From Pseudodesulfovibrio piezophilus C1TLV30 (GTDB taxonomy: Bacteria > Desulfobacterota > Desulfovibrionia > Desulfovibrionales > Desulfovibrionaceae), in contig NC_020409.1 in assembly GCF_000341895.1 (NCBI RefSeq), forward strand, positions 570,001 through 602,000: a DNA stretch of 32,000 nucleotides, read 5' to 3'. Shown here piece after piece: positions 7,944 through 21,116 of this stretch. How positions within the stretch are numbered: position 1 is the stretch's first letter; the number at the start of each line of letters is the position of its first letter. Both the position numbers and the translations under genes were made by a program. The notes under the pieces were generated by a model that worked only from the letters and a program-made list of their open reading frames with translations, was not told the DNA's origin and did no database searches.

Positions 7944-8797
7944 TATTGCACCTTGACACTGTCAGGGGTCATAAAAACAGCCTGTACTCTCTTGCCATTT
8001 CCACCAACAACCTCACTTCGATTTTCCTTGGCGTAAAAATTAATGACGTCACCTGTTAAACTGTTAGGACCATCCTGTAATTGAGGATTATCTTCCATCC
8101 GAAGCACTTGACGACTGACAAAATAAATCAACTTGCCACATGATCCTCGTGAACGCCCTTTTTGGGCTTTCACACTCCCTTCTGCTACGATTTTATCAAT
8201 ACTGTCAGCCGAAAATTTTTTATCAGAGCTCGAAGCAAGGTATGCAGACAATTTATGGGCCCAAAGAGTTAAATCACCATGTTCAGCAACGACATTTCCA
8301 ACAAAAGAAACCATCTTCCCACTCTCATCATAAATCATGCGTTCTGAAGATATCTTGATAGGAACTCTTCCCGGAGTGACACCAAATGCACTTGGTGAAA
8401 AAGGAGCTTCTGCTTGAACGTCGGCCTTGACTTCACCTTCCCCACTGGGAGGTAAAGGTATTGAAGAAACTACGATATCTTTCTCATTTTCCTGCTTCAT
8501 CTGGGCCGGTGCCAAAAAACGCATATGAGAATATCCAAGAGCATCCTTCTCGTCATGTGCGGTGGCATTGAGGTCGAAGACGGCCCCCCAATTCCCTTCA
8601 ACAAAATCAACTTTGACTTTCTGTCCTTTTAACAAGGTGACTCTGTGTTTACTCTGAGCAGTTCTCTTGGCTCGAACATTCAAATTCTGAGTGGCTTCAC
8701 GGATTTCCCCCCACCCATCGGCGTAAACCGAAGATGCAGCAACCATGATGCAGACACAAAAAATTATGGAGAGGGAAATACGTTTCATAGAAAACAC
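7943..8797 (-). CDS. LptA/OstA-family periplasmic protein with N-terminal SH3b-like extension
   Basis: Signal peptide (…AASSVYA), then an SH3b-like segment (NLNVRAKRTAQSKHRVTLLKGQKVKVDFVEGNWGAV), a linker, and an OstA-like C-terminal half. It lies between lptC and lptB. The start is GTG 8797 or ATG 8788. Confidence 0.7.
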   Translation of the reverse strand: MFSMKRISLSIIFCVCIMVAASSVYADGWGEIREATQNLNVRAKRTAQSKHRVTLLKGQKVKVDFVEGNWGAVFDLNATAHDEKDALGYSHMRFLAPAQMKQENEKDIVVSSIPLPPSGEGEVKADVQAEAPFSPSAFGVTPGRVPIKISSERMIYDESGKMVSFVGNVVAEHGDLTLWAHKLSAYLASSSDKKFSADSIDKIVAEGSVKAQKGRSRGSCGKLIYFVSRQVLRMEDNPQLQDGPNSLTGDVINFYAKENRSEVVGGNGKRVQAVFMTPDSVKVQ

Positions 8798-8806
8798 ACC
8801 ATATCT

Positions 8807-9409
8807 CTATTTATTAAGGGACATACCACTATATTTTTGGGGAGAGAATAAGGCCTCGACCCCGCCAGCTGCGATGAGTTCGCGACTAATCAGATCAATT
8901 TCAACGGCTGCACCAGTCAATGTCATATCAGGTCTACGAACAATGACGCCACCTTTAAGGTAGACCTTATGCATGGCACCAACATAATCGAGATGTTGAG
9001 CAAGCAATTCAATATCACCAAACCGGCCCGTCACATTATCATATAAGGTCAGATTATCATTGGATTGATCAACATCGCCAAGATCAGCCTTGACATAGAC
9101 TTCTTGTCGATCTTCGCCATAAAAAGCTGTCAATTGGGGATGCTCAACGCCAATGAGTTTTCTTTCCTGATTGTACTGAGCTTTTTTTGCAAGCAACTTC
9201 CACGTCATAGCCCCCTGCTTTCCTTGGACCAGTTCTATATCTTGCGCTACAATATCTGATTGATCCAAAATTTCATCTCGACTGCCACCTCCCGAAGCTT
9301 TTTCTGGAGTGACAAGAATATCGGTGAAAAAAGTCTCCTTGATAGCTATCCCCAAGAGCAAACCAAGAGCAAAAATGAGTATAAAGAAAAGCGCAGAACG
9401 CCTTTTCAT
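8807..9409 (-). CDS. lptC: LPS export system protein LptC
   Basis: A single N-terminal membrane anchor (ALFFILIFALGLLLGIAI) plus an ~170-aa periplasmic domain. It holds the conserved kdsC-lptC-lptA-lptB position. Confidence 0.7.
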   Translation of the reverse strand: MKRRSALFFILIFALGLLLGIAIKETFFTDILVTPEKASGGGSRDEILDQSDIVAQDIELVQGKQGAMTWKLLAKKAQYNQERKLIGVEHPQLTAFYGEDRQEVYVKADLGDVDQSNDNLTLYDNVTGRFGDIELLAQHLDYVGAMHKVYLKGGVIVRRPDMTLTGAAVEIDLISRELIAAGGVEALFSPQKYSGMSLNK

Positions 9410-9937
9410 CTAGTCTACCCACCGCTTCATGGCATCTTCAAATAAGCCACGAGCTTTGAGAATATAGCTAATGGCTTCACGAACCGCACCATGGCCTCCA
9501 CGCTTAGTAGAGACCCAATCTGCAATCTCAAGAACTTCGGGCATGGCATTGGACACACTCATCGCGAGTCCGGCATATTTCATTACTCCGAGGTCAATCC
9601 AGTCATCTCCAATAAATGCAGCTTCAGATGGCTTTATTCCTATTTTATCACACATTTCAATCAAGTAAGGAACTTTTCGATGATTGCCAGCATAATAATG
9701 CTTAATACCAAGCTCAGAGATTCTTTTTTCAACCGGAGGTTGATCCAACCCGGTGATAACACCAATTTCAAGCCCTGCCGTCTGGGCGAGTTTGATACCG
9801 AGACCATCCTGAACATTAAACCGTTTCATGACCATACCTTCATTGGTATAGTACAAACCTCCATCTGTTAAAACCCCATCAACATCAAGCACAAGCAATT
9901 TTATATTCTGGGCAAGCTTGAAAGCACGATCAGCCAT
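9410..9937 (-). CDS. kdsC: 3-deoxy-D-manno-octulosonate 8-phosphate phosphatase (HAD-IIIA)
   Basis: DVDGVLTDG and GDDWIDL HAD motifs; 175 aa; 8-nt overlap with kdsA. Confidence 0.85.
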
Positions 9938-10739
9938 TATTCAACTCCCAAAGAGCCTTGAGGCGGGTGAGGAGAGCCTCCACAGCATCAAGTGGCAAAC
10001 TGTTCGGCCCATCACATTTTGCATTATCCGGATCAGGGTGGCACTCCATAAAAACCCCGTTTGCACCGGCGGCAACTGCAGCCGAAGCCAAAACAGGAAT
10101 ATATTCCCGCTGCCCTCCAGAGGCCTTGCCAAGCCCCCCCGGCAACTGGACCGAATGGGTTGCATCAAAAACTACTGGCACATCAAATTTTCGCATTTCA
10201 GGAATGGAGCGCATGTCTACAACCAAATTATTGTATCCATACGTTACCCCACGCTCTGTCAGCCAAATATTTTCATTACCCGAGGCCCGTAGCTTATTCA
10301 CGACATTTTCCATATCCCAAGGAGCAAGGAATTGGCCTTTTTTCACATTAACAATTTTGCCTGTCTTTGCTGCTGCAACAAGCAAATCTGTCTGCCTGCA
10401 TAAAAAAGCAGGAATTTGGAGAACGTCAGCGACCTCCGCAACCAAGGGGGCCTGTTCAGGATGATGAATATCCGTAACAATAGGAAGCCCGGTTTCAGCC
10501 TTGACCTCAGAAAGCAAACGCACGCCTTCCTGCATTCCAGGCCCTCGAAAACTCGTAACAGAAGTCCTGTTCGCCTTATCAAAAGAACTTTTAAAAACCA
10601 ACGGCAAACCGAGCCGATCTGCGATCGCTGCAAGCGTTGTCGCTGCACGCAGTACGATTTCACGGCTTTCAATGACACACGGTCCGGCCAGAATAAACGG
10701 ACCGGACCGACTTTTTTGATATAATTCGCTTAGAGCCAA
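9930..10739 (-). CDS. kdsA: 2-dehydro-3-deoxyphosphooctonate aldolase (KDO8P synthase)
   Basis: [20 protein letters not shown] and [11 protein letters not shown] motifs. The TTG start lies directly after the pyrG stop. Confidence 0.9.
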
Positions 10740-14486: not shown

Positions 14487-14579
14487 GGAGAGGTAGCGAA
14501 GTCCGGCCGTAACGCGCTCGACTCGAAATCGAGTTATGGGTCAAACCATACGTGGGTTCGAATCCCACCCTCTCCGCCA
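14487..14579 (+). tRNA. tRNA-Ser (anticodon CGA), class II with long variable arm, encoded CCA
   Basis: Acceptor GGAGAGG/CCTCTCC, anticodon stem CTCGA/TCGAG with loop CT-CGA-AA, long variable arm, T-arm GTGGG-TTCGAAT-CCCAC, discriminator G plus CCA. Confidence 0.9.
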
Positions 14580-14580
14580 T
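14560..14580 (+). repeat. attL core (3' end of tRNA-Ser)
   Basis: GAATCCCACCCTCTCCGCCAT, repeated at 20739-20760 with one extra C. Confidence 0.8.
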
Positions 14581-14643
14581 TGACAGCTAAGTCATCATTA
14601 TGACTAAAAATATAAGTAATAAAGTAGGTTCCGACTCCAAGAG

Positions 14644-14664
14644 GGTACACCAATCTGGTACACC
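14644..14664 (+). repeat. Direct 8-mer repeat GGTACACC x2 (13-nt period) just upstream of the integrase SD
   Basis: GGTACACC at 14644-14651 and at 14657-14664. Candidate operator or arm-type site. Confidence 0.5.
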
Positions 14665-14677
14665 TGAGGAGTCTACT

Positions 14678-16351
14678 ATGACCAAACCAGCCTACTTATT
14701 TCGCTCCAAAACTGGACTGTTCTACTTCCGTAGGAAAGTTCCTGCTGACCTCCTGACCGTCTATGGTGGGAGGAAACAAATCAAAAGATCATTACAGACC
14801 CATGACCCTCAGGAAGCCTATGAGCTTGTGAGGATTGAGGCCGTGCGCTCTGACCAAGAGTTCACTGAGCATAGGAAGATCATCAAGAGAGACAATAGCA
14901 GGAGACCGTCTGAGTCTTCTACACCTATGTCTGTACCTGAGATGAAACGCCGTGCATTACTGATGAAGCAACACATGCTGGAAGTTGATGATGAGCTACG
15001 TGTTTCAGGTGGATTCATTGAAGATGAAGACCACGAAGGCTACCTCCTCAGGTCTCAGGAACAGCTTGATGACATCAAACAAGCCTATGCCCGTGGGGAT
15101 GTAGATGCAGTCAAATCCCATATAAGGGAATGGACGAAGAATGAATCTGACATCCCTTATGAAGTGTCCTTGGAGTACATGAAGGCTTTGATTGAAGCCA
15201 CTGAGATACAGCTTGCAAGGAAGCAAGGTGAGATCATACTTACACCTGAGGTTCCTCCAAGTGAGGATGAGATACAGGTGGAAGTACCTGACCAGACTCC
15301 CGACAAGATCAAAGGCAATACCCTACGGAGCGTCTTCAAGAAGTACGTCGAGGAGCGACAGCCCAAAGGGAATACCGCTCGTGACTACCTTGCCCATATC
15401 CATAGGTTCACTCAGGTCTTAGGGGTTGATGACATAGCCCTTGATGACGTTACCCCTACTCATATCCGTACATTCAAGGATGTACTGGTACAGCTTCCTG
15501 CACGGGTTCCCAGTGAGATGAAGGGAATGACTGTCCTTGAGATGGTCAAGGCCATGAAGGGACGGGATGATATAGCACCACTCTCCGCAAAGACTATCAA
15601 TGACAAGGCTCTGAGCGCACTCAGGGCGGTCTATGGCTATGCTGTGAGGAATGGCTACTGTGACCATAACCCTGCACAGGGCATCAAGGTAGAAGTCTCC
15701 CTGAGGAAGCAGAAGGCTGGCAGCGACAGACTCCCATACTCTGTTGAAGACATGAATAAGATATTTCGTTTCCCGGTCTACACCGAGAATGACAGACCCA
15801 TAGGCGGGAAAGGTGAAGCTGCATACTGGCTACCACTACTGGCTGCGTTCACTGGCGCACGACTTGAGGAGCTTGGTCAGATTACCAAGGACAACGTGAG
15901 GAAGGAACGAGGCGTTCACTACATTGACCTCAGGGAACTTGATGAAGCCAAGACTGAGAACAGTAAGCGCAGGATACCAATACACCCTGAACTGATTAAA
16001 CTTGGCTTCCTGACCTACGTGAAGTCCATTAAGAGTGGACGGATATTCCCCGACCTACAGCGAGGTAAGGATGGTAAACTGACCTCCTCATTCTCAAAAT
16101 GGTGGGGAAGATATGCCCGTCAACACGGTGGTTGGGGTAAAGAGAAAGTGTTCCATTCCTTCCGTCACGCTGCCAAGGATGGCTTCCGAGAAGGTGACGT
16201 AGCAGAAGACCTGAGGGATGAACTCATGGGTCATGCTCCTAGGACCGTAGGCGAGTCCTATGGGTCTGGTAGTTCAATCAAGAGATTGTCTGAGGGAATG
16301 AGTAGGCTTACTTATCCCGGTCTTGATCTGTCGCATTTGACGAAGTGGTAG
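14678..16351 (+). CDS. Tyrosine-type site-specific integrase (large, ~557 aa)
   Basis: GAGGAG SD 6 nt before ATG 14678 (the ORF track start 14600 is an alternative). The N-terminal GLFYFRRKVP segment is typical of island integrases. C-terminal catalytic pattern: GARLEEL (R), HSFRH (HxxR), MGH, ESYG (Y). Confidence 0.9.
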   Translation: MTKPAYLFRSKTGLFYFRRKVPADLLTVYGGRKQIKRSLQTHDPQEAYELVRIEAVRSDQEFTEHRKIIKRDNSRRPSESSTPMSVPEMKRRALLMKQHMLEVDDELRVSGGFIEDEDHEGYLLRSQEQLDDIKQAYARGDVDAVKSHIREWTKNESDIPYEVSLEYMKALIEATEIQLARKQGEIILTPEVPPSEDEIQVEVPDQTPDKIKGNTLRSVFKKYVEERQPKGNTARDYLAHIHRFTQVLGVDDIALDDVTPTHIRTFKDVLVQLPARVPSEMKGMTVLEMVKAMKGRDDIAPLSAKTINDKALSALRAVYGYAVRNGYCDHNPAQGIKVEVSLRKQKAGSDRLPYSVEDMNKIFRFPVYTENDRPIGGKGEAAYWLPLLAAFTGARLEELGQITKDNVRKERGVHYIDLRELDEAKTENSKRRIPIHPELIKLGFLTYVKSIKSGRIFPDLQRGKDGKLTSSFSKWWGRYARQHGGWGKEKVFHSFRHAAKDGFREGDVAEDLRDELMGHAPRTVGESYGSGSSIKRLSEGMSRLTYPGLDLSHLTKW

Positions 16352-17027
16352 ACTCAACAGCAACGTTGTGGGAAGGCCCGTCCATCACTTTCTGACCTAT
16401 CAAAGTACCTATTATTGAGAAGAAAGCCACTGGCACAGCGACGATCAGTCCAACCTTTATAGAGTCCTTATTTCTTTGAAGAAAGGAGGTAACTTCCTCT
16501 GGACCTTTGATATACACTTCTGCTTTGATTTGTAGGCTACGCATTTCATAATATGCCCAAGCCAAGTATGCAAAATTAATGGGAAGCATCCACAGAATTT
16601 CTACCAGAGTGATAGAGTCCTTCATTATGGATTTAATCGAAGCGTAACCAACTGGGATTATCAACAGATAGAATAACCACGAGTATCTATTTAAGATCGT
16701 CCTCTTTCTCTCTGCGGCTTGTAGTATGGCATCAATTTCATGGAAAGCCGCTATTGGTTCAGGAGCGTCACTCGAAATACTTAGTGAAGTGTTCTTGGAT
16801 ACTGAGAGGTAAACATAGGGGTTTGAAGAGTCTATTGTTAGGTAGTCTAGCTCCTTCCCTTTATTCACTTCTTTCAATTCATCAATACTATCAAAGACAT
16901 AATCCCCGTCACGTATCTCAATATCCTCAGAATACTTCAATAACACAGCAACAATTCGTTCAATATCACCGATGAACAGTTTAGGGGCGCGATAACGACC
17001 ACTAGGCAGCTTCCTGATTTTCCTCAT
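16308..17027 (-). CDS. Hypothetical membrane protein (soluble N-domain plus 3 predicted TM helices)
   Basis: GGAGAG SD before ATG 17027 (GTG 17060 is an alternative). TM candidates are YSWLFYLLIIPVGYASI, LVEILWMLPINFAYLAWAYY and VGLIVAVPVAFFSIIGTLIG. I recognise no family. The 3' end overlaps the integrase 3' end by 44 nt (convergent). Confidence 0.6.
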   Translation of the reverse strand: MRKIRKLPSGRYRAPKLFIGDIERIVAVLLKYSEDIEIRDGDYVFDSIDELKEVNKGKELDYLTIDSSNPYVYLSVSKNTSLSISSDAPEPIAAFHEIDAILQAAERKRTILNRYSWLFYLLIIPVGYASIKSIMKDSITLVEILWMLPINFAYLAWAYYEMRSLQIKAEVYIKGPEEVTSFLQRNKDSIKVGLIVAVPVAFFSIIGTLIGQKVMDGPSHNVAVESTTSSNATDQDRDK

Positions 17028-17231
17028 AATCTCTCCAAATCTTTCAATATGCCTTATCACTTACCCCAAATAAATTCGACTACAAAATGTGAAGGGATGT
17101 ATAATACGTATACAACCGCGATTCCCCCCTTGCCTACCTGTCTACCAGCCTGAGAGGGATTAATTCCTTCCTCTACACACCCACCACATTCTCTACAATC
17201 TGCCACCATTCCCGGCGTAATTCAGAGCTTG

Positions 17232-17254
17232 AACGCGACAGATAACGCGACAGA
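17232..17254 (+). repeat. Tandem 11-mer AACGCGACAGA x2 (12-nt period)
   Basis: AACGCGACAGA-t-AACGCGACAGA, read directly at 17232-17242 and 17244-17254. Confidence 0.8.
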
Positions 17255-17742
17255 CTCCCGGCAACCGTTGGTATCACTACATCTACACTAGATACTATAT
17301 CTCCTAGAGTAACATACTCGCCGCCATTCCCACCTGAATGAGCATGAATGGAGGGGCTGTATGACAGCCAGTAGCGACCCTGTAGCCATCCACCTCACTA
17401 TCCATATAAATCTGAGCCACTTGTCTCTTAGATATACCGGTACTGTGATTACTAGACACTTAAAGATAATGAAGCGCACCCATTGGGATGCACATGCGAA
17501 TTATCAAGTGCAGTATGCAGCCATATGTGAGGCTGACTTAGAGGATGCCTGAACAAATGATACAGTGCTTCGGCAAACAACATCTCCCTCACAGTCACCT
17601 CACATATGGTGGCTATACTCACACCCAATCATTTCTGAATGGCCTATCGACCTCTACCCTGAGGTCTACCCTTGTCTCTTCTCCATTCGTTTGGAGTTCA
17701 TGCGTGGAGTGCAAACCACGTATGTATTGCGACCCATGGCAG

Positions 17743-17777
17743 CGTCACTAGCTCTCCCTGCTAGTGGCGTTGTTGTG
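17743..17777 (+). terminator. Terminator-like or attenuator-like hairpin about 90 nt upstream of the island operon
   Basis: CGTCACTAGC (17743-17752) pairs with GCTAGTGGCG (17760-17769): 10 bp including one G-U, loop TCTCCCT. It is followed by TTGTTGTG. Confidence 0.4.
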
Positions 17778-17857
17778 CGTTGGTGAGGTGGTGTGGGAGG
17801 TCTATTCGTTTCAAATTCTGCACCCATAGGGTGACACAAACAGGAGGCATATCAACT

Positions 17858-18145
17858 ATGCACACGGCAGATGAACAGGCTGACAAGCCCACTAAGACGT
17901 ACCTGACAAGAGGTAAGGATTCTAAGCGGATGTACTTCTACTCCGATAAGATGACCCTCTACAACTTCTACCTCATCAAAGGGTTCTACACTGAGAACCT
18001 TGGAGGGCAGGAGGTATCCACCTCTATCATCATGCGGAGAGCCTTGGAGCTACTGGCAAGGAATGTAGAGGCTATCTCTGAGGCTGGCTCCCCGGTCAAT
18101 GAGGTGAAGGATGAACTCTCACTGTTGTTCAGGAAGGTGCAGTAG
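17858..18145 (+). CDS. Small putative ribbon-helix-helix DNA-binding protein (95 aa)
   Basis: AGGAGG SD 10 nt before ATG 17858. KRMYFYSDKMTLYNFYLIKGF...VSTSIIMRRALELLARN fits a beta-strand/helix/helix RHH layout. This is a fold guess from the sequence pattern only. Confidence 0.55.
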   Translation: MHTADEQADKPTKTYLTRGKDSKRMYFYSDKMTLYNFYLIKGFYTENLGGQEVSTSIIMRRALELLARNVEAISEAGSPVNEVKDELSLLFRKVQ

Positions 18146-18147
18146 AC

Positions 18148-18453
18148 ATGAACGTAGACGTAAACAACATGACCAAGGAACAGCAAGAGATGCACGAAGC
18201 CATGATGACTGAGCTATGGTTTGTGACTCTCACTGCCACCATTGCGACCATGAAGCTCCCTGCCGACCAGATCAAGGCGGCACAGTTAGCACAGGCGCGA
18301 GGGTTCCTACTCGACAATGGAATTACCTTTGAGAGCCTGAACCCAATGAGGGCGCAGGAAGCTATGCAACAGGCATACACAACCATATTGAAAGACCTCC
18401 CGACACCGGAGGAACTGGACGCACGATTAAATGGAGAACAACATGACCAGTAA
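18148..18453 (+). CDS. Hypothetical protein (101 aa), helical, no recognised family
   Basis: AGGAAGG SD; the ATG lies 2 nt after the preceding stop (translational coupling). Confidence 0.5.
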   Translation: MNVDVNNMTKEQQEMHEAMMTELWFVTLTATIATMKLPADQIKAAQLAQARGFLLDNGITFESLNPMRAQEAMQQAYTTILKDLPTPEELDARLNGEQHDQ

Positions 18454-18625
18454 GAAGCAAGAGATACGCAAAGATGGCACGACTGTACGGAAGACCTGTG
18501 ACAACGGCGGGAAGCTGCCTGTCCTCACTATTGTTGATGCACCTGTAGGGACTGACAAGGACTGTGACTACAAGACCAAGGTTCCTCAGGGGCTTGGGAA
18601 TGTGACGTTGGCGCGAGGCAAGTAG
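18443..18625 (+). CDS. Hypothetical small protein (60 aa)
   Basis: GGAGAA SD 4-5 nt before ATG 18443 (18431 is an alternative). It overlaps the previous gene's end, and the next gene's ATG directly abuts its stop. Confidence 0.4.
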   Translation: MTSKKQEIRKDGTTVRKTCDNGGKLPVLTIVDAPVGTDKDCDYKTKVPQGLGNVTLARGK

Positions 18626-18883
18626 ATGGCTATACCTGAGAAGTATCGAGGATTCACATACACAGGAAAGATTCTGACTCTGAAACCGGAAGAGAAGCTG
18701 ACTGATGAAGAGATAATAGAATGGTTGCGAAGTATGGAACGAATTGGACAACCTCAGGCACTATACCCCGCAGGACTCTTGCGAATTGCTGAGAGGACTG
18801 AGGATGGTCATTACTTACTCCCGCCTCCTGAGGTGTGGGTAGAGCCTACTCCGAGGAAGTGGAGAGACATTAAGGGAGACTGA
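18626..18883 (+). CDS. Hypothetical protein (85 aa)
   Basis: The ATG lies immediately after the TAG of the preceding gene; GAGG SD upstream; no recognised family. Confidence 0.5.
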   Translation: MAIPEKYRGFTYTGKILTLKPEEKLTDEEIIEWLRSMERIGQPQALYPAGLLRIAERTEDGHYLLPPPEVWVEPTPRKWRDIKGD

Positions 18884-18884
18884 T

Positions 18885-19343
18885 ATGACGAACAAACATG
18901 AGAGGCTTACCTTGGAAGCCAATGCGATCTTCGTCAGCGCACAGATACAGATAAGGCACAAACTCAATCCTGAACAGGTGGAGACCTACCGGAACAACTA
19001 CCTGAATGGTATTGATATGCCGCCTATTGAGATTGCTCTGTTAGGTAATAGATATTGGGTAGTGGACGGGTTCCACCGTCTAGCAGCTATGAAGACTATC
19101 AACCCTGCCTACCCTGTTGATGCAATTCTCTTGAAGGGAATGTCACAAGCCAAGGTTAGGTGGAGGGCTGCGTCTGCGAACATGCAACACGGCCTACCTC
19201 TGACACGTACTGAGAAGCAACAGGCGTTCAAGGTCTTTGTGGGTCTCAAGATGAACCGTAAGACTTCCAAGAGGAAGCCCCTGAGGGATTGCGGCCCTAA
19301 GGACTTCATGTCCAGAAGTGGGTTCACTTTATCGGACCACTGA
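18885..19343 (+). CDS. ParB/Srx N-terminal-domain protein, 3' end apparently interrupted by IS insertion
   Basis: YWVVDGFHRLAA (DGxHR ParB-like motif) and NMQHGLPLTRTEKQQAF. GGGAGA SD. The stop codon TGA 19341-19343 is the first three bases of the IS terminal inverted repeat. Confidence 0.65.
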   Translation: MTNKHERLTLEANAIFVSAQIQIRHKLNPEQVETYRNNYLNGIDMPPIEIALLGNRYWVVDGFHRLAAMKTINPAYPVDAILLKGMSQAKVRWRAASANMQHGLPLTRTEKQQAFKVFVGLKMNRKTSKRKPLRDCGPKDFMSRSGFTLSDH

Positions 19344-19392
19344 GCGGCGAATTTAAGGTGGACAGTTTTACGTGTTACGCCGCCTTGTGGGT

Positions 19393-19424
19393 CCATCCCA
19401 GAGGGGGTACCCCCTCTGGGATGG
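19393..19424. repeat. Perfect 32-nt palindrome inside the IS, downstream of orfB
   Basis: CCATCCCAGAGGGGGTACCCCCTCTGGGATGG; every position pairs (checked base by base). Confidence 0.9.
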
Positions 19425-19468
19425 GACCGCTTTGATATATCTCCATCGGCTTGCGTCCGTCAAAGGTC

Positions 19469-20284
19469 TTAAGAAGGACCCCAATTATTGTAGAAGTTAA
19501 ACCACCAGGCCAAGGCACTCCGCAGCTCACTTCCTGTCTCCAGTTCCCGCAAGTAGACACATTCGTATTTCAAAGACTTCCAGAGTCGTTCGATCATGAC
19601 GTTATCCATCCAGCGTCCTCGGCCATCCATTGAAATGCGGATGCCAGCATCCCGCAGAGTCTTTGTGAATTCATAGCTGGTGAACTGGCTCCCCTGGTCT
19701 GTGTTGAATATCTCAGGTTCTCCATAACGGTTGATCGCATCCTCCAAAGCTACGACACAAAAGTCGGCCTCCATCGTATTCGACAAACGCCACGACAATA
19801 CTGCCCGGCTATGCCAATCCATGATTGCCACGAGATACAAGAAGCCTCGTTTCATCGGAATGTAAGTAATGTCGGTACACCAAACTTGATTTGGCTTTGT
19901 GATCTTCATGTTCCGCAACAAATACGGATATATTTTGTGCTGTGGATGAGGATCACTCGTCCTCGGTTTTTGGTAAATCGCCATCAAGCCCATCTTGCGC
20001 ATAAGTCGTCTCACACGACCACGGCCAACCAGATGCCTTTCATCCCGCAGAATGTTGCGCATCTGGCGTGAGCCGAAAAATGGTAGCTCCATGAACAACT
20101 CGTCGATGCGTTTCATCAACTCCAAGTTATACGATGATTCGCCAATCGGCTGATAATAGTATGTTGAGCGTTGCAGTTTGAGGATTCTGCATTGTCGCCG
20201 GACGCTGAGTTGTGGATGCTCTTTGTCGACGACTTCACGCCTTCGCTCGCAGCTCAGATTTTGGCGAAGGCTTGTTGCAAAAAA
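19469..20284 (-). CDS. IS3-family transposase OrfB (DDE), expressed as an OrfAB fusion by -1 frameshift
   Basis: The orfB frame is open from the T-TTT-TTG slippery heptamer (plus-strand 20278-20284). It reads [31 protein letters not shown] (D), [11 protein letters not shown] (D), [10 protein letters not shown] (E). The C-terminal end appears frameshifted (see findings). Confidence 0.8.
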
Positions 20285-20541
20285 TCCTTCTCGATCAGAA
20301 GTTGGCCGATCTTAGCGTGCAGATCCTTGATATGTGCATCGTCCATTTGCTGGCTCTTCTCTGCCTTGCCAGAAAATGACGCGACAATACCTTCTTTGGC
20401 TTGTCGTTTCCACGTGGATATCTGGTTGGTGTGAACTCCATACTTGCTGGCCAGCTCGGAAAGTGTGTGCTCGCCAGACAAAGCGTCGAGGGCTACACGG
20501 GCTTTGAATTCAGCAGTAAATCTTCTTCTCTTCTTGGACAT
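20254..20541 (-). CDS. IS3-family transposase OrfA (HTH)
   Basis: AAGGAGG SD before ATG 20541. MSKKRRRFTAEFKARVALDALSGEHTLSELASKYGVHTNQISTWKRQ is the classic IS3 OrfA pattern. Confidence 0.85.
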   Translation of the reverse strand: MSKKRRRFTAEFKARVALDALSGEHTLSELASKYGVHTNQISTWKRQAKEGIVASFSGKAEKSQQMDDAHIKDLHAKIGQLLIEKDFLQQAFAKI

Positions 20542-20738
20542 CGAAAAGCCTCCTTCGGCTATCATATGTCCCCCCTTATACTGTGGTCCAGTTTCTTAGA
20601 CCCACTTCTCATATCAACTAGGATGGCTTAAAAAGTTGCTCAATTGCTATCGAACGCTAAATCTCAACTTGCCAACTGTCACACCGACACAAGAACTGAA
20701 AATATCAATGATTCCAGGAGACACAGGGATCAAGGCTT

Positions 20739-20760
20739 GAATCCCACCCCTCTCCGCCAT
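20739..20760 (+). repeat. attR core (partial duplicate of the tRNA-Ser 3' end)
   Basis: GAATCCCACCCCTCTCCGCCAT. It matches 14560-14580 apart from one extra C, and similarity stops at ...CCAT in both copies. Confidence 0.8.
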
Positions 20761-21116
20761 GGAGATAAAAGCCCCTGTTGTCTTTGAAAACTCAATGGTG
20801 ATAGAGGCTTTCTTTTGCCTATTTCTCGAGATAACTGGAAGTAAAATTTTACTTAAGACGCATCTCAATACGCCTCTCTTAGCGTGCATCCTAAAGTCAC
20901 TGATATTATTATGTTATAATCAAATTTTAGTTACCCCAATCGTGACAAAGTATTCGCTTTGGTCTGCATAAATGCATTCAATTTCTTTCCATCTGGTTAC
21001 AATACCAGTTCATTATGCGTCATAATTATATGATCGTACCCTATCACTCCCCTATCTATTTTACATAAAAATTAACATACTGGACTATTCCACAACCTTA
21101 CCCCTTCGACTTATTA

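Follow-up and report, generated by a model that had tools for sequence, protein, structure and literature searches.

An ORF-less gap in a tRNA-Ser island

The window, i.e., the whole stretch of DNA analysed here, comprises 32,000 nucleotides (nt) of Pseudodesulfovibrio piezophilus C1TLV30 (NC_020409.1, positions 570,001 to 602,000). It holds a chromosomal island at a tRNA-Ser gene, in which a gap of roughly 0.8 kb without open reading frames (ORFs) lies between a minus-strand gene and an operon. We read this gap as a composite cis-regulatory region, with DNA-level sites in its 5' half and a promoter and structured leader in its 3' half, rather than as one large non-coding RNA (ncRNA). We put at about even the chance that the promoter is driven by the RNA polymerase (RNAP) of a helper phage and that, with an insulating leader after it, it governs an island resembling a satellite of T7-like (Autographiviridae, ProddE-like) phages.

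The island is delimited by a repeat of the tRNA 3' end, present at 14555-14583 (attL) and 20734-20763 (attR), and spans 6.2 kb. Its order is tyrosine integrase, minus-strand membrane-protein gene, gap, five small plus-strand genes, and an IS3-family element. The main genes and elements are as follows:

14487-14583, plus strand: tRNA-Ser(CGA) with attL (the tRNA itself at 14487-14579)
14600-16351, plus strand: tyrosine integrase with a DUF6538 N-terminus, SAM-like and Phage_integrase domains
16308-17060, minus strand: membrane-protein gene without a family match, in a variable slot
17858-18145, plus strand: gene 1, 95 amino acids (aa), with the Shine-Dalgarno (SD) sequence AGGAGG at 17842-17847
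18148-18453, plus strand: gene 2, 101 aa, homologue of the T7-type small terminase, TerS (PF11123)
18885-19343, plus strand: ParB-like nuclease-domain gene, its 3' end lost to the IS3 insertion
19314-20609, minus strand: IS3-family element bounded by terminal inverted repeats (19314-19340 and 20583-20609)

The minus-strand gene probably starts at the ATG at 17027 instead of the GTG at 17060, judging from the alignment of homologues and a GGAGAG upstream, which gives a gap of about 830 nt.

The gap recurs in four other islands and is not coding

Four other copies of the island are known, all metagenomic (L003, L004, L005 and L007). They are tRNA-Ser islands with integrases approximately 60% identical and a common layout of integrase, minus-strand gene, ORF-less gap of 767-861 bp, and operon; in L003, L004 and L005, the gap measures 767-834 bp and the minus-strand gene overlaps the integrase. 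L007 was retrieved via the most conserved protein of the island, whose family has just four clusters in the whole database. With L003 and L007 closely related, the comparison set consists of five copies from four independent lineages. Between islands, identity falls to 32-40% for gene 1 and to 17-32% for the minus-strand gene, while blocks of the gap stay conserved. Its length and several sequence blocks are kept in all five copies, and on this comparative evidence the gap is functionally important. The gaps of L003 and L007 share 88% identity, but the two islands have different minus-strand genes (L003 11667-12506; L007 1765-2472), showing that the gap goes with the operon and that the minus-strand position is a cargo slot. 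No version of the minus-strand gene matched a defence system or any other family.

An earlier reading of the locus from its letters and ORFs (the sequence-only reading) had described the region as ORF-less and hairpin-rich. No ORF is conserved across the five copies and no frame has a coding signal; short similarities do occur, in several frames and on both strands, over the same nucleotide blocks. A decayed protein gene was rejected as an origin of the gap on the same two grounds. The statement that no ORF in the gap has an SD needs correction, as ORF 17361-17552 (63 codons) has GGAGG 6 nt upstream. The start of this ORF overlaps the hairpin at 17355-17369, and its ATG and reading frame are present in the window copy only; as none of the other four islands has them, a gene here is improbable.

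All features listed in that reading were recovered, at the same coordinates or within a few bases: TATAAT at 17100-17105, tandem AACGCGACAGA twice at 17232-17254, GCC(A/G)CCATTCCC at 17202 and 17320, hairpins at 17355-17369, 17649-17666 and 17703-17720, a long-range helix (a perfect 12-bp inverted repeat, 17521-17532/17598-17609, enclosing TGCTTCGGCA), a GC-rich hairpin before the operon (at 17739-17773, with a U/G-rich tail after it), and an excess of C over G in the first 300 nt or so. Taken by itself, the TATAAT/promoter-like count is at chance level (3 found, 2.3 expected), while the 12-bp inverted repeat and an 11-nt tandem repeat were matched by none of 300 dinucleotide shuffles. The suspicion that the gap is unusually structured also stands, with whole-region folding z-scores against shuffles of -5.4 and -7.5 on the plus strand and about -2 to -2.7 on the minus strand. 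No Rfam family fits, in line with the failure of that reading to place the region in one: the only Rfam 15 matches above the gathering threshold are to tRNA, and a permissive threshold added only spurious miRNA and lncRNA matches (E of at least 0.26). The sequence-only reading overlooked a T7-group-type promoter block (17447-17467), the small terminase, the IS3 truncation and the satellite-like family, and the co-change of the tandem repeat with the gene 1 protein.

Searches further afield returned little. Blastn of the gap against phages and plasmids gave no match, scans of genome, metagenome and viral contigs with the integrase, the ParB-like protein and a 219-aa island protein gave no confirmed relatives, and neither viral nor metagenome collections contained the exact DNA pattern of the most conserved block. 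L006 and L009-L011, islands whose integrases are 42-47% identical, were set aside, as their cargo is unrelated. The island family is very rare (five copies in a search of 5.8 billion protein clusters), so its ecological weight is probably small.

A block in the format of phage RNAP promoters

Near the middle of the gap lies a block, M3, that has the format of promoters for single-subunit RNAPs of the T7 group:

17447-17467, plus strand: M3 of the window, GATTACTAGACACTTAAAGAT
M3 of L005: AATTACTCGTCACTTAAAGAC
M3 of L007: ATTTACTCCACACTTAAAGCT
M3 of L003: ATTGACTCCACACTTAAAGAT
M3 of L004: ATTTGCTCGACACTAGAAGAT

In the window, M3 consists of an A/T-rich segment (-17 to -13), a 5-nt variable region, CACT, TAAA and a starting purine, with a predicted start at about 17464-17465. 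All five copies fit A(A/T)TT(A/G)-N5-CACT-(T)A(A/T)A-purine, and the spacing equals that of T3, SP6 and ProddE-clade promoters (the T3 and SP6 strings were confirmed). L003 and L007 have one or two more M3-like copies approximately 100 nt downstream; the window, L004 and L005 have a single copy. The format pattern, which was defined post hoc, occurs once in the 32-kb window against 0.11 expected, and it is enriched in island gaps relative to about 120 unrelated viral loci. With a position weight matrix (PWM) built from phage promoters only, the best match of the window on both strands falls exactly on M3, and the best matches of L003, L005, L007 and the more distant islands L012 and L013 lie within their gaps on the operon strand. 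Under the same matrix, real phage promoters score 0.8-19.9 when left out one at a time. The specificity segment of M3 (CTAGA/CTCGA/CTCCA) matches none of the phages found; a search for phages with M3-type promoters gave single matches at chance level, and L169 is unrelated.

Links to ProddE-like phages

Gene 2 connects the island to phages of the T7 type. PF11123, the T7-type small terminase family, is matched by 6 of 6 members of the gene 2 family (best E 3.7e-11), and the family profile aligns with TerS of Desulfovibrio phage ProddE at 93.8% probability in hhalign. This phage, a temperate member of the Autographiviridae, encodes an RNAP of its own. We examined 80 loci around related RNAP genes for promoter motifs. 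Close relatives of ProddE have repeated plus-strand motifs of the form AATTA-N5-CACT-(3-4 A/T)-purine, e.g., AATTACCCTGCACTTATAGCA three times; such same-strand repeats, of which AATTAAGACGCACTAGTAAG (four times or more) and AATTAGGTTGCACTAGTGA (three times) are other examples, come right after the RNAP genes of ProddE-like phages. A scan of IMG/VR for AATTAA-N4-CACTAGTAAG retrieved a 42.7-kb ProddE-like phage with homologues of RNAP, primase-helicase, DNA polymerase, TerL and integrase; this is the phage with AATTAAGACGCACTAGTAAG, which it carries on one strand in at least 4 copies, including a tandem pair that directly follows the RNAP gene. Real phage promoters of the M3 format thus exist in the ProddE group.

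ProddE itself (L014) carries AATTAGGTTCCACCTATC twice, at 8630-8647 after the RNAP gene and at 42293-42310 in the non-coding right end. This promoter was read by eye and then confirmed as two exact copies; a de novo k-mer search for ProddE promoters returned terminators only, and neither M3 nor the T3-like motif occurs in this phage. The promoters, which are unannotated in the ProddE record, lie directly after the RNAP gene across the clade, as tandem pairs in several phages (L177, at 2613 and 2661; L171, L175 and L176) and singly in ProddE. The right end of ProddE is 530 bp of non-coding DNA in which the promoter copy lies next to CTAAAG-type short repeats, a placement that parallels T7 phi1.1A/B and phiOR/SRR.

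Two distant islands with DUF6538 integrases, L012 (at the same site in the chromosome of P. senegalensis) and L013, likewise have a long ORF-less gap ahead of an operon. L013 shares homologues of g1, g2, g6 and g7 and is therefore a true relative; it also encodes a T7 gp14-like protein 39-40% identical to an internal virion protein of ProddE. Its gap contains two tandem promoter-like copies, AATTAACCCTCACTAGTAAGAAG and AATTAAGGCCCACTAGTAAGAAG, of the type AATTAA-N4-CACTAGTAAGAAG. Compared with the promoter of one ProddE-like phage, which has at least four copies of it, both conserved segments match and only the 4-nt specificity region differs. Positions -17 to -4 of the T3 promoter recur exactly, as AATTAACCCTCACT, in the gaps of L012 and L013. 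Just 3' of this T3-like motif, the L012 gap (10150-10230) has about 6-7 TAGG(G/A/T)TTA-like units spaced 11-12 nt apart, an array that looks like iterons or the short repeats of T7 genome ends.

Strand-specific folding in the 3' half, a probable leader

Downstream of M3, the gap has the properties of an untranslated leader, with the following elements:

17465-17857, plus strand: structured untranslated leader of about 390 nt, folding z-score -6.3 (plus) and -3.4 (minus)
17510-17620, plus strand: long hairpin with core inverted repeat 17521-17537/17594-17609
17739-17783, plus strand: terminator-like hairpin with U/G-rich tail, 14-bp stem including G-U pairs, -23 kcal/mol, 75 nt before the ATG
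17821-17833, plus strand: pre-SD hairpin CACCC-ATA-GGGTG with compensatory changes across islands

For folding, each gap was split at M3 and compared with 100 shuffles per z-score. Over the five copies, the 3' half gave -6.3, -2.9, -5.9, -4.7 and -2.7 on the plus strand and -3.4, -2.6, -3.5, -1.4 and -1.5 on the minus strand, and the leader of L013 gave -5.1 versus -1.6. The 5' half had no consistent folding signal on either strand in the five copies. RNA structure is thus located in the 3' half and is strand-specific. These results leave the idea of one structured RNA of about 650 nt, put forward in the sequence-only reading, without support, since the 5' half has no consistent or strand-specific folding signal and its conserved parts act like DNA sites. 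The competing idea of a long leader with a terminator-like hairpin comes closest to the comparative picture, but for the 3' half (approximately 17465-17857) only; the third idea of that reading, a DNA-level function, may apply to the 5' half. A phage-RNAP-type promoter followed by a folded leader of some 390 nt, with a terminator-like hairpin before the operon, argues that the gap is not one large ncRNA.

A long imperfect hairpin follows soon after M3 in every copy, and 300-400 nt of variable sequence lie between M3 and the terminator-like hairpin. An equivalent of the latter is present in 5 of 5 copies, 74-82 nt before the ATG and with energies of -20 to -27 kcal/mol, in sequences that cannot be aligned with each other and with a U-rich tail; in L013, a canonical terminator precedes gene 1 by 40 nt. 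A simple terminator scan left the window hairpin (17739-17773) uncalled. No mutually exclusive antiterminator pairing conserved among the copies was found, and a 9-nt complement in the window (17390-17398/17783-17791) is specific to it, with no counterpart seen in L003.

The pre-SD hairpin has compensatory changes. In the four non-window sequences, pairing holds in 95.8% of cells, and both sides have changed in 4 of 6 pairs; the count is on four sequences because MAFFT failed to place the shorter loop of the window, whose stem (CACCC/GGGTG) is identical to that of L004. None of 500 shuffles reached the paired fraction or the covariation score, and slid controls collapse. RNAalifold gave no convincing global fold over the 5' core, with an unfavourable covariation term (+5.08), and its long-range helices were not used because they are invariant or involve the promoter block.

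Conserved DNA blocks in the 5' half

The 5' half (17061-17446) holds the strongest sequence conservation of the gap:

17068-17110: conserved block AAATATTTCGAC..AAAATGTGAGG..TATA(A/T)(T/A)
17112-17230, plus strand: C-rich, G-poor spacer of variable sequence
17232-17254: tandem 12-nt repeat, AACGCGACA twice
17265-17331, plus strand: most conserved block, with GTTGGTATCACT, AGAT-N5-ATCT (17290-17302), GAGTA-N3-TACTC (17307-17319) and GCCGCCATTCCC
17355-17369, plus strand: hairpin GGCTGT/ACAGCC
17418-17441: conserved block CACTT(A/G)..GTCTTAGATA(C/T)(C/A)CCGGT

The first block is a putative sigma-70-like divergent promoter region (TTCGAC/TCGACT, an 18-19-nt spacer and TATAAT) that could act on either strand. 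The spacer after it has a skew of -0.3 to -0.55 in all five copies and, if transcribed, might be rut-like. The two mini-palindromes of the most conserved block are invariant among the islands. At the position of the 17355-17369 hairpin, three other islands have a hairpin of entirely different sequence; in L003, it is degraded.

Both copies of the tandem repeat change in concert between islands, to AACGCTACA in L005 and to ATT(T/G)CAACA in L003 and L004; elsewhere in the islands, only scattered 9-mers with 0-1 mismatches to the unit occur. The repeat classes AACGC(G/T)ACA and ATT(T/G)CAACA track the gene 1 protein motifs KRMxFY and (V/I)RKxFY, respectively, which suggests a candidate operator/repressor pair. 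The protein may be a small DNA-binding one, but a ribbon-helix-helix fold could not be confirmed (no Pfam match, best PDB E = 0.5, AlphaFold2 pLDDT 60), and with hhalign neither CopG nor Arc matched.

The window copy is truncated

The IS3-family element (orfA at 20254-20565 and orfB at 19469-20125, both on the minus strand) is inserted inside the ParB-like gene and occupies the place of the distal island genes g6 and g7, which relatives possess. Intact relatives have three extra genes, for a full ParB-like protein (253 aa in L005), a 219-aa Zn-finger-like protein and a protein of about 360 aa, showing that the window copy was truncated by the insertion. Within the element, between its left inverted repeat and orfB, lies a perfect 32-nt palindrome at 19393-19424 (16+16, CCATCCCAGAGGGGGT/ACCCCCTCTGGGATGG). 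On metagenome contig L001 (3150-6216), an IS3 element 99.8% identical to this one is followed by an unrelated polymorphic-toxin/immunity-like locus that takes the place of attR, implying a second copy of the element, a rearrangement or a chimeric assembly; the DNA past the element was rejected as island sequence.

The gene 1 protein matches a hypothetical protein of P. piezophilus in NCBI at 100% identity and has no other relative among the 5.8 billion clusters, i.e., it is an ORFan outside the island family. PADLOC and NCBIfam returned nothing useful for the island proteins, and no recognisable replicase was found among them. The starts of genes 2 and 3 share a 37-nt direct repeat with 78% identity (18163-18199 and 18437-18473; AACAACATGACCAAGGAACAGCAAGAGATGCACGAAG and a variant), which resembles a duplication of the gene start or a translational signal common to both genes. 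In the relatives, L007 has a second DUF6538 integrase (583 aa, 7971-9722) directly after the first island, suggesting tandem islands at one attachment site, and the L004 island is longer (17956-20527, attR at approximately 20487-20527), with additional cargo such as a DNA methylase and an HTH_7 fragment.

A proposed helper-driven promoter and its alternatives

The reading to which we give an even chance is that a helper-phage RNAP switches the island on through M3. Without a helper, host-RNAP transcription entering from the left would be untranslated, pass through the C-rich (Rho-prone) stretch and run into the hairpin/terminator; stopped there, it would leave the operon (gene 1, the small terminase, etc.) silent. 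A T7-like helper makes its own RNAP, and this enzyme would initiate at M3 and read through into the operon, so that the operon, including its helper-type small terminase, would be expressed only during infection. The 5' half would contribute the divergent sigma-70-like promoter block, the tandem repeat as a candidate operator for the gene 1 protein, and three strongly conserved blocks.

Several points weigh against this proposal. The M3 of the window scores 12.7 bits, less than the 14.4 that shuffled 32-kb sequences reach on average with their best match, and has a G at -17, and the M3 of L004 is only third by PWM in its own locus. Two scans of IMG/VR found no phage with an M3-type promoter, only single matches at chance level, and the island is absent from the viral-particle contigs scanned, a weak negative. 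The window copy, truncated as it is, is probably defective and may be dead. The U-tracts after the terminator-like hairpin are interrupted in 4 of 5 copies (the window tail is UUGUGCGUUGG), so termination strength is uncertain, and T7-type RNAPs can stop at hairpin-plus-U signals too. With just four independent lineages, covariation carries little statistical weight outside one 6-bp helix, and palindromic protein sites would give the same apparent covariation. Lastly, the most conserved blocks (17265-17441) are left unexplained.

Alternatively, the gap may be mainly a DNA-level replication or packaging site mimicking a T7-like control region, where the promoter would serve priming or maturation and not expression. 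The site could be a promoter-primed origin like T7 phi1.1A/1.1B or a pac site resembling phiOR or a concatemer junction and recognised by the island TerS, with blocks and repeats as protein-binding sites. ProddE-like phages place promoter copies, often in tandem, after the RNAP gene, and ProddE has another at its right end; two or three tandem promoter-like copies occur in L003, L007 and L013; the TerS gene lies just downstream; the most conserved blocks are in the half that has no RNA-structure signal; and the island encodes no recognisable replicase. We nevertheless consider this explanation rather unlikely. There is no AT-rich unwinding region after M3 and no iteron array besides the two-copy repeat, the window, L004 and L005 have one promoter copy, and strand-specific folding with terminator-like and pre-SD hairpins at fixed positions suits an mRNA leader better. 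The two functions would use the same promoter and are not exclusive. The host attenuator, the free-standing large ncRNA and the decayed gene are progressively less likely. A long leader started by host RNAP at the sigma-70-like promoter (approximately 17100), with regulated read-through of the 17739-17773 hairpin by Rho, a protein or an RNA, would account for the conserved promoter-like block with its perfect TATAAT in the window, for the C-rich, G-poor unstructured stretch typical of Rho loading sites, for the conserved terminator-like hairpin, and for the tandem repeat as a possible autoregulatory operator. Its probability is low, however: the other four copies have a poor -10 element, the spacer measures 18-19 nt, the block may instead belong to the divergent minus-strand gene, no conserved antiterminator pairing was found, and the phage-promoter-format block and its L012 and L013 counterparts would go unexplained.

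A discrete, trans-acting structured ncRNA of about 400-650 nt ending at 17739-17773 (an immunity RNA, decoy or guide) would fit the strong plus-strand z-scores, the terminator-like 3' end at a fixed position and the hairpins retained with differing sequences. It is slightly more improbable still, as no Rfam family emerged even at permissive thresholds, sequence conservation is lowest in the structured 3' half, whose length differs by more than 80 nt between copies, the conserved 5' half lacks structure, RNAalifold covariation over the core is unfavourable, and internal complementarities of the P4 type are not conserved. Finally, the degradation of the window island by the IS3 element, and the ORFs of 50-73 codons that tile the region, might point to a decayed gene or a neutral spacer with chance hairpins. 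This we regard as very improbable, given the conservation of gap length and blocks in five copies, the lack of a conserved ORF or frame or of any coding signal, and inverted and tandem repeats that exceed all 300 shuffles.

A bolder form of the helper-RNAP proposal, which we advance tentatively and at less than even confidence, sees in these islands the first satellites to be tied to T7-like (Autographiviridae) phages, sensing their helper directly through its RNAP at a terminator-insulated promoter, which might also prime replication or maturation. Known satellites detect their helpers via antirepressors or transactivators. A non-exhaustive search of the searchable literature found no described satellite of T7-like phages and no helper-RNAP promoter used as a switch. 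If true, the proposal would add a simple mode of induction, in which promoter mimicry is combined with an insulating leader, extend satellites to podoviruses of anaerobic sulfate reducers, and provide a small, naturally occurring expression cassette that is silent in the host and responds to phage RNAP. The locus also illustrates that a candidate for a large ncRNA can be a composite of DNA sites and a structured leader.

Comparison with known systems

Promoters of the T7, T3, SP6 and ProddE RNAPs share with M3 a motif of about 20 nt with an A/T-rich segment at -17 to -13 (AATTA/ATTTA), a 5-nt specificity segment, CACT, a 3-4-nt A/T melting segment and a purine start, and both are oriented towards genes. 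Unlike them, M3, whose promoter activity is predicted from its sequence, lies in a chromosomal island that has no RNAP gene and occurs once in the window. The T7 phi1.1A/1.1B origin and the phiOR/right-end control region, together with the ProddE right end, resemble the gap in having several hundred non-coding bp with a promoter (in tandem in some islands), hairpins, short repeats and adjoining terminase genes. The gap differs from the T7 and ProddE ends in that it has no AT-rich segment, terminal repeat or CCTAAAG-type array, and it lies upstream of TerS, not downstream of TerL.

In satellite P4, the early operon has a long untranslated leader with CI RNA immunity, in which transcription terminates prematurely ahead of the main operon. 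The island likewise has a putative long untranslated leader before a satellite-like operon; unlike in P4, complementarities of the seqA/seqB/seqC type were not found, and there is no match to related Rfam families.

Among phage satellites, we compared the island with phage-inducible chromosomal islands (PICI) and their minimalist marine counterparts (PICMI) (PMC10803314). The differences are that the presumed helper is a T7-like podovirus, that there is no AlpA, Fis, primase or repressor module, that induction is proposed to occur by direct transcription by the helper RNAP rather than by an antirepressor, and that no copy of the island turned up in the viral contigs scanned. Like PICI and PICMI, it is small (approximately 7.5 kb when intact), bears an integrase and flanking att repeats, has no capsid or tail genes, and combines its own small-terminase homologue of the presumed helper type with a variable accessory-gene slot.

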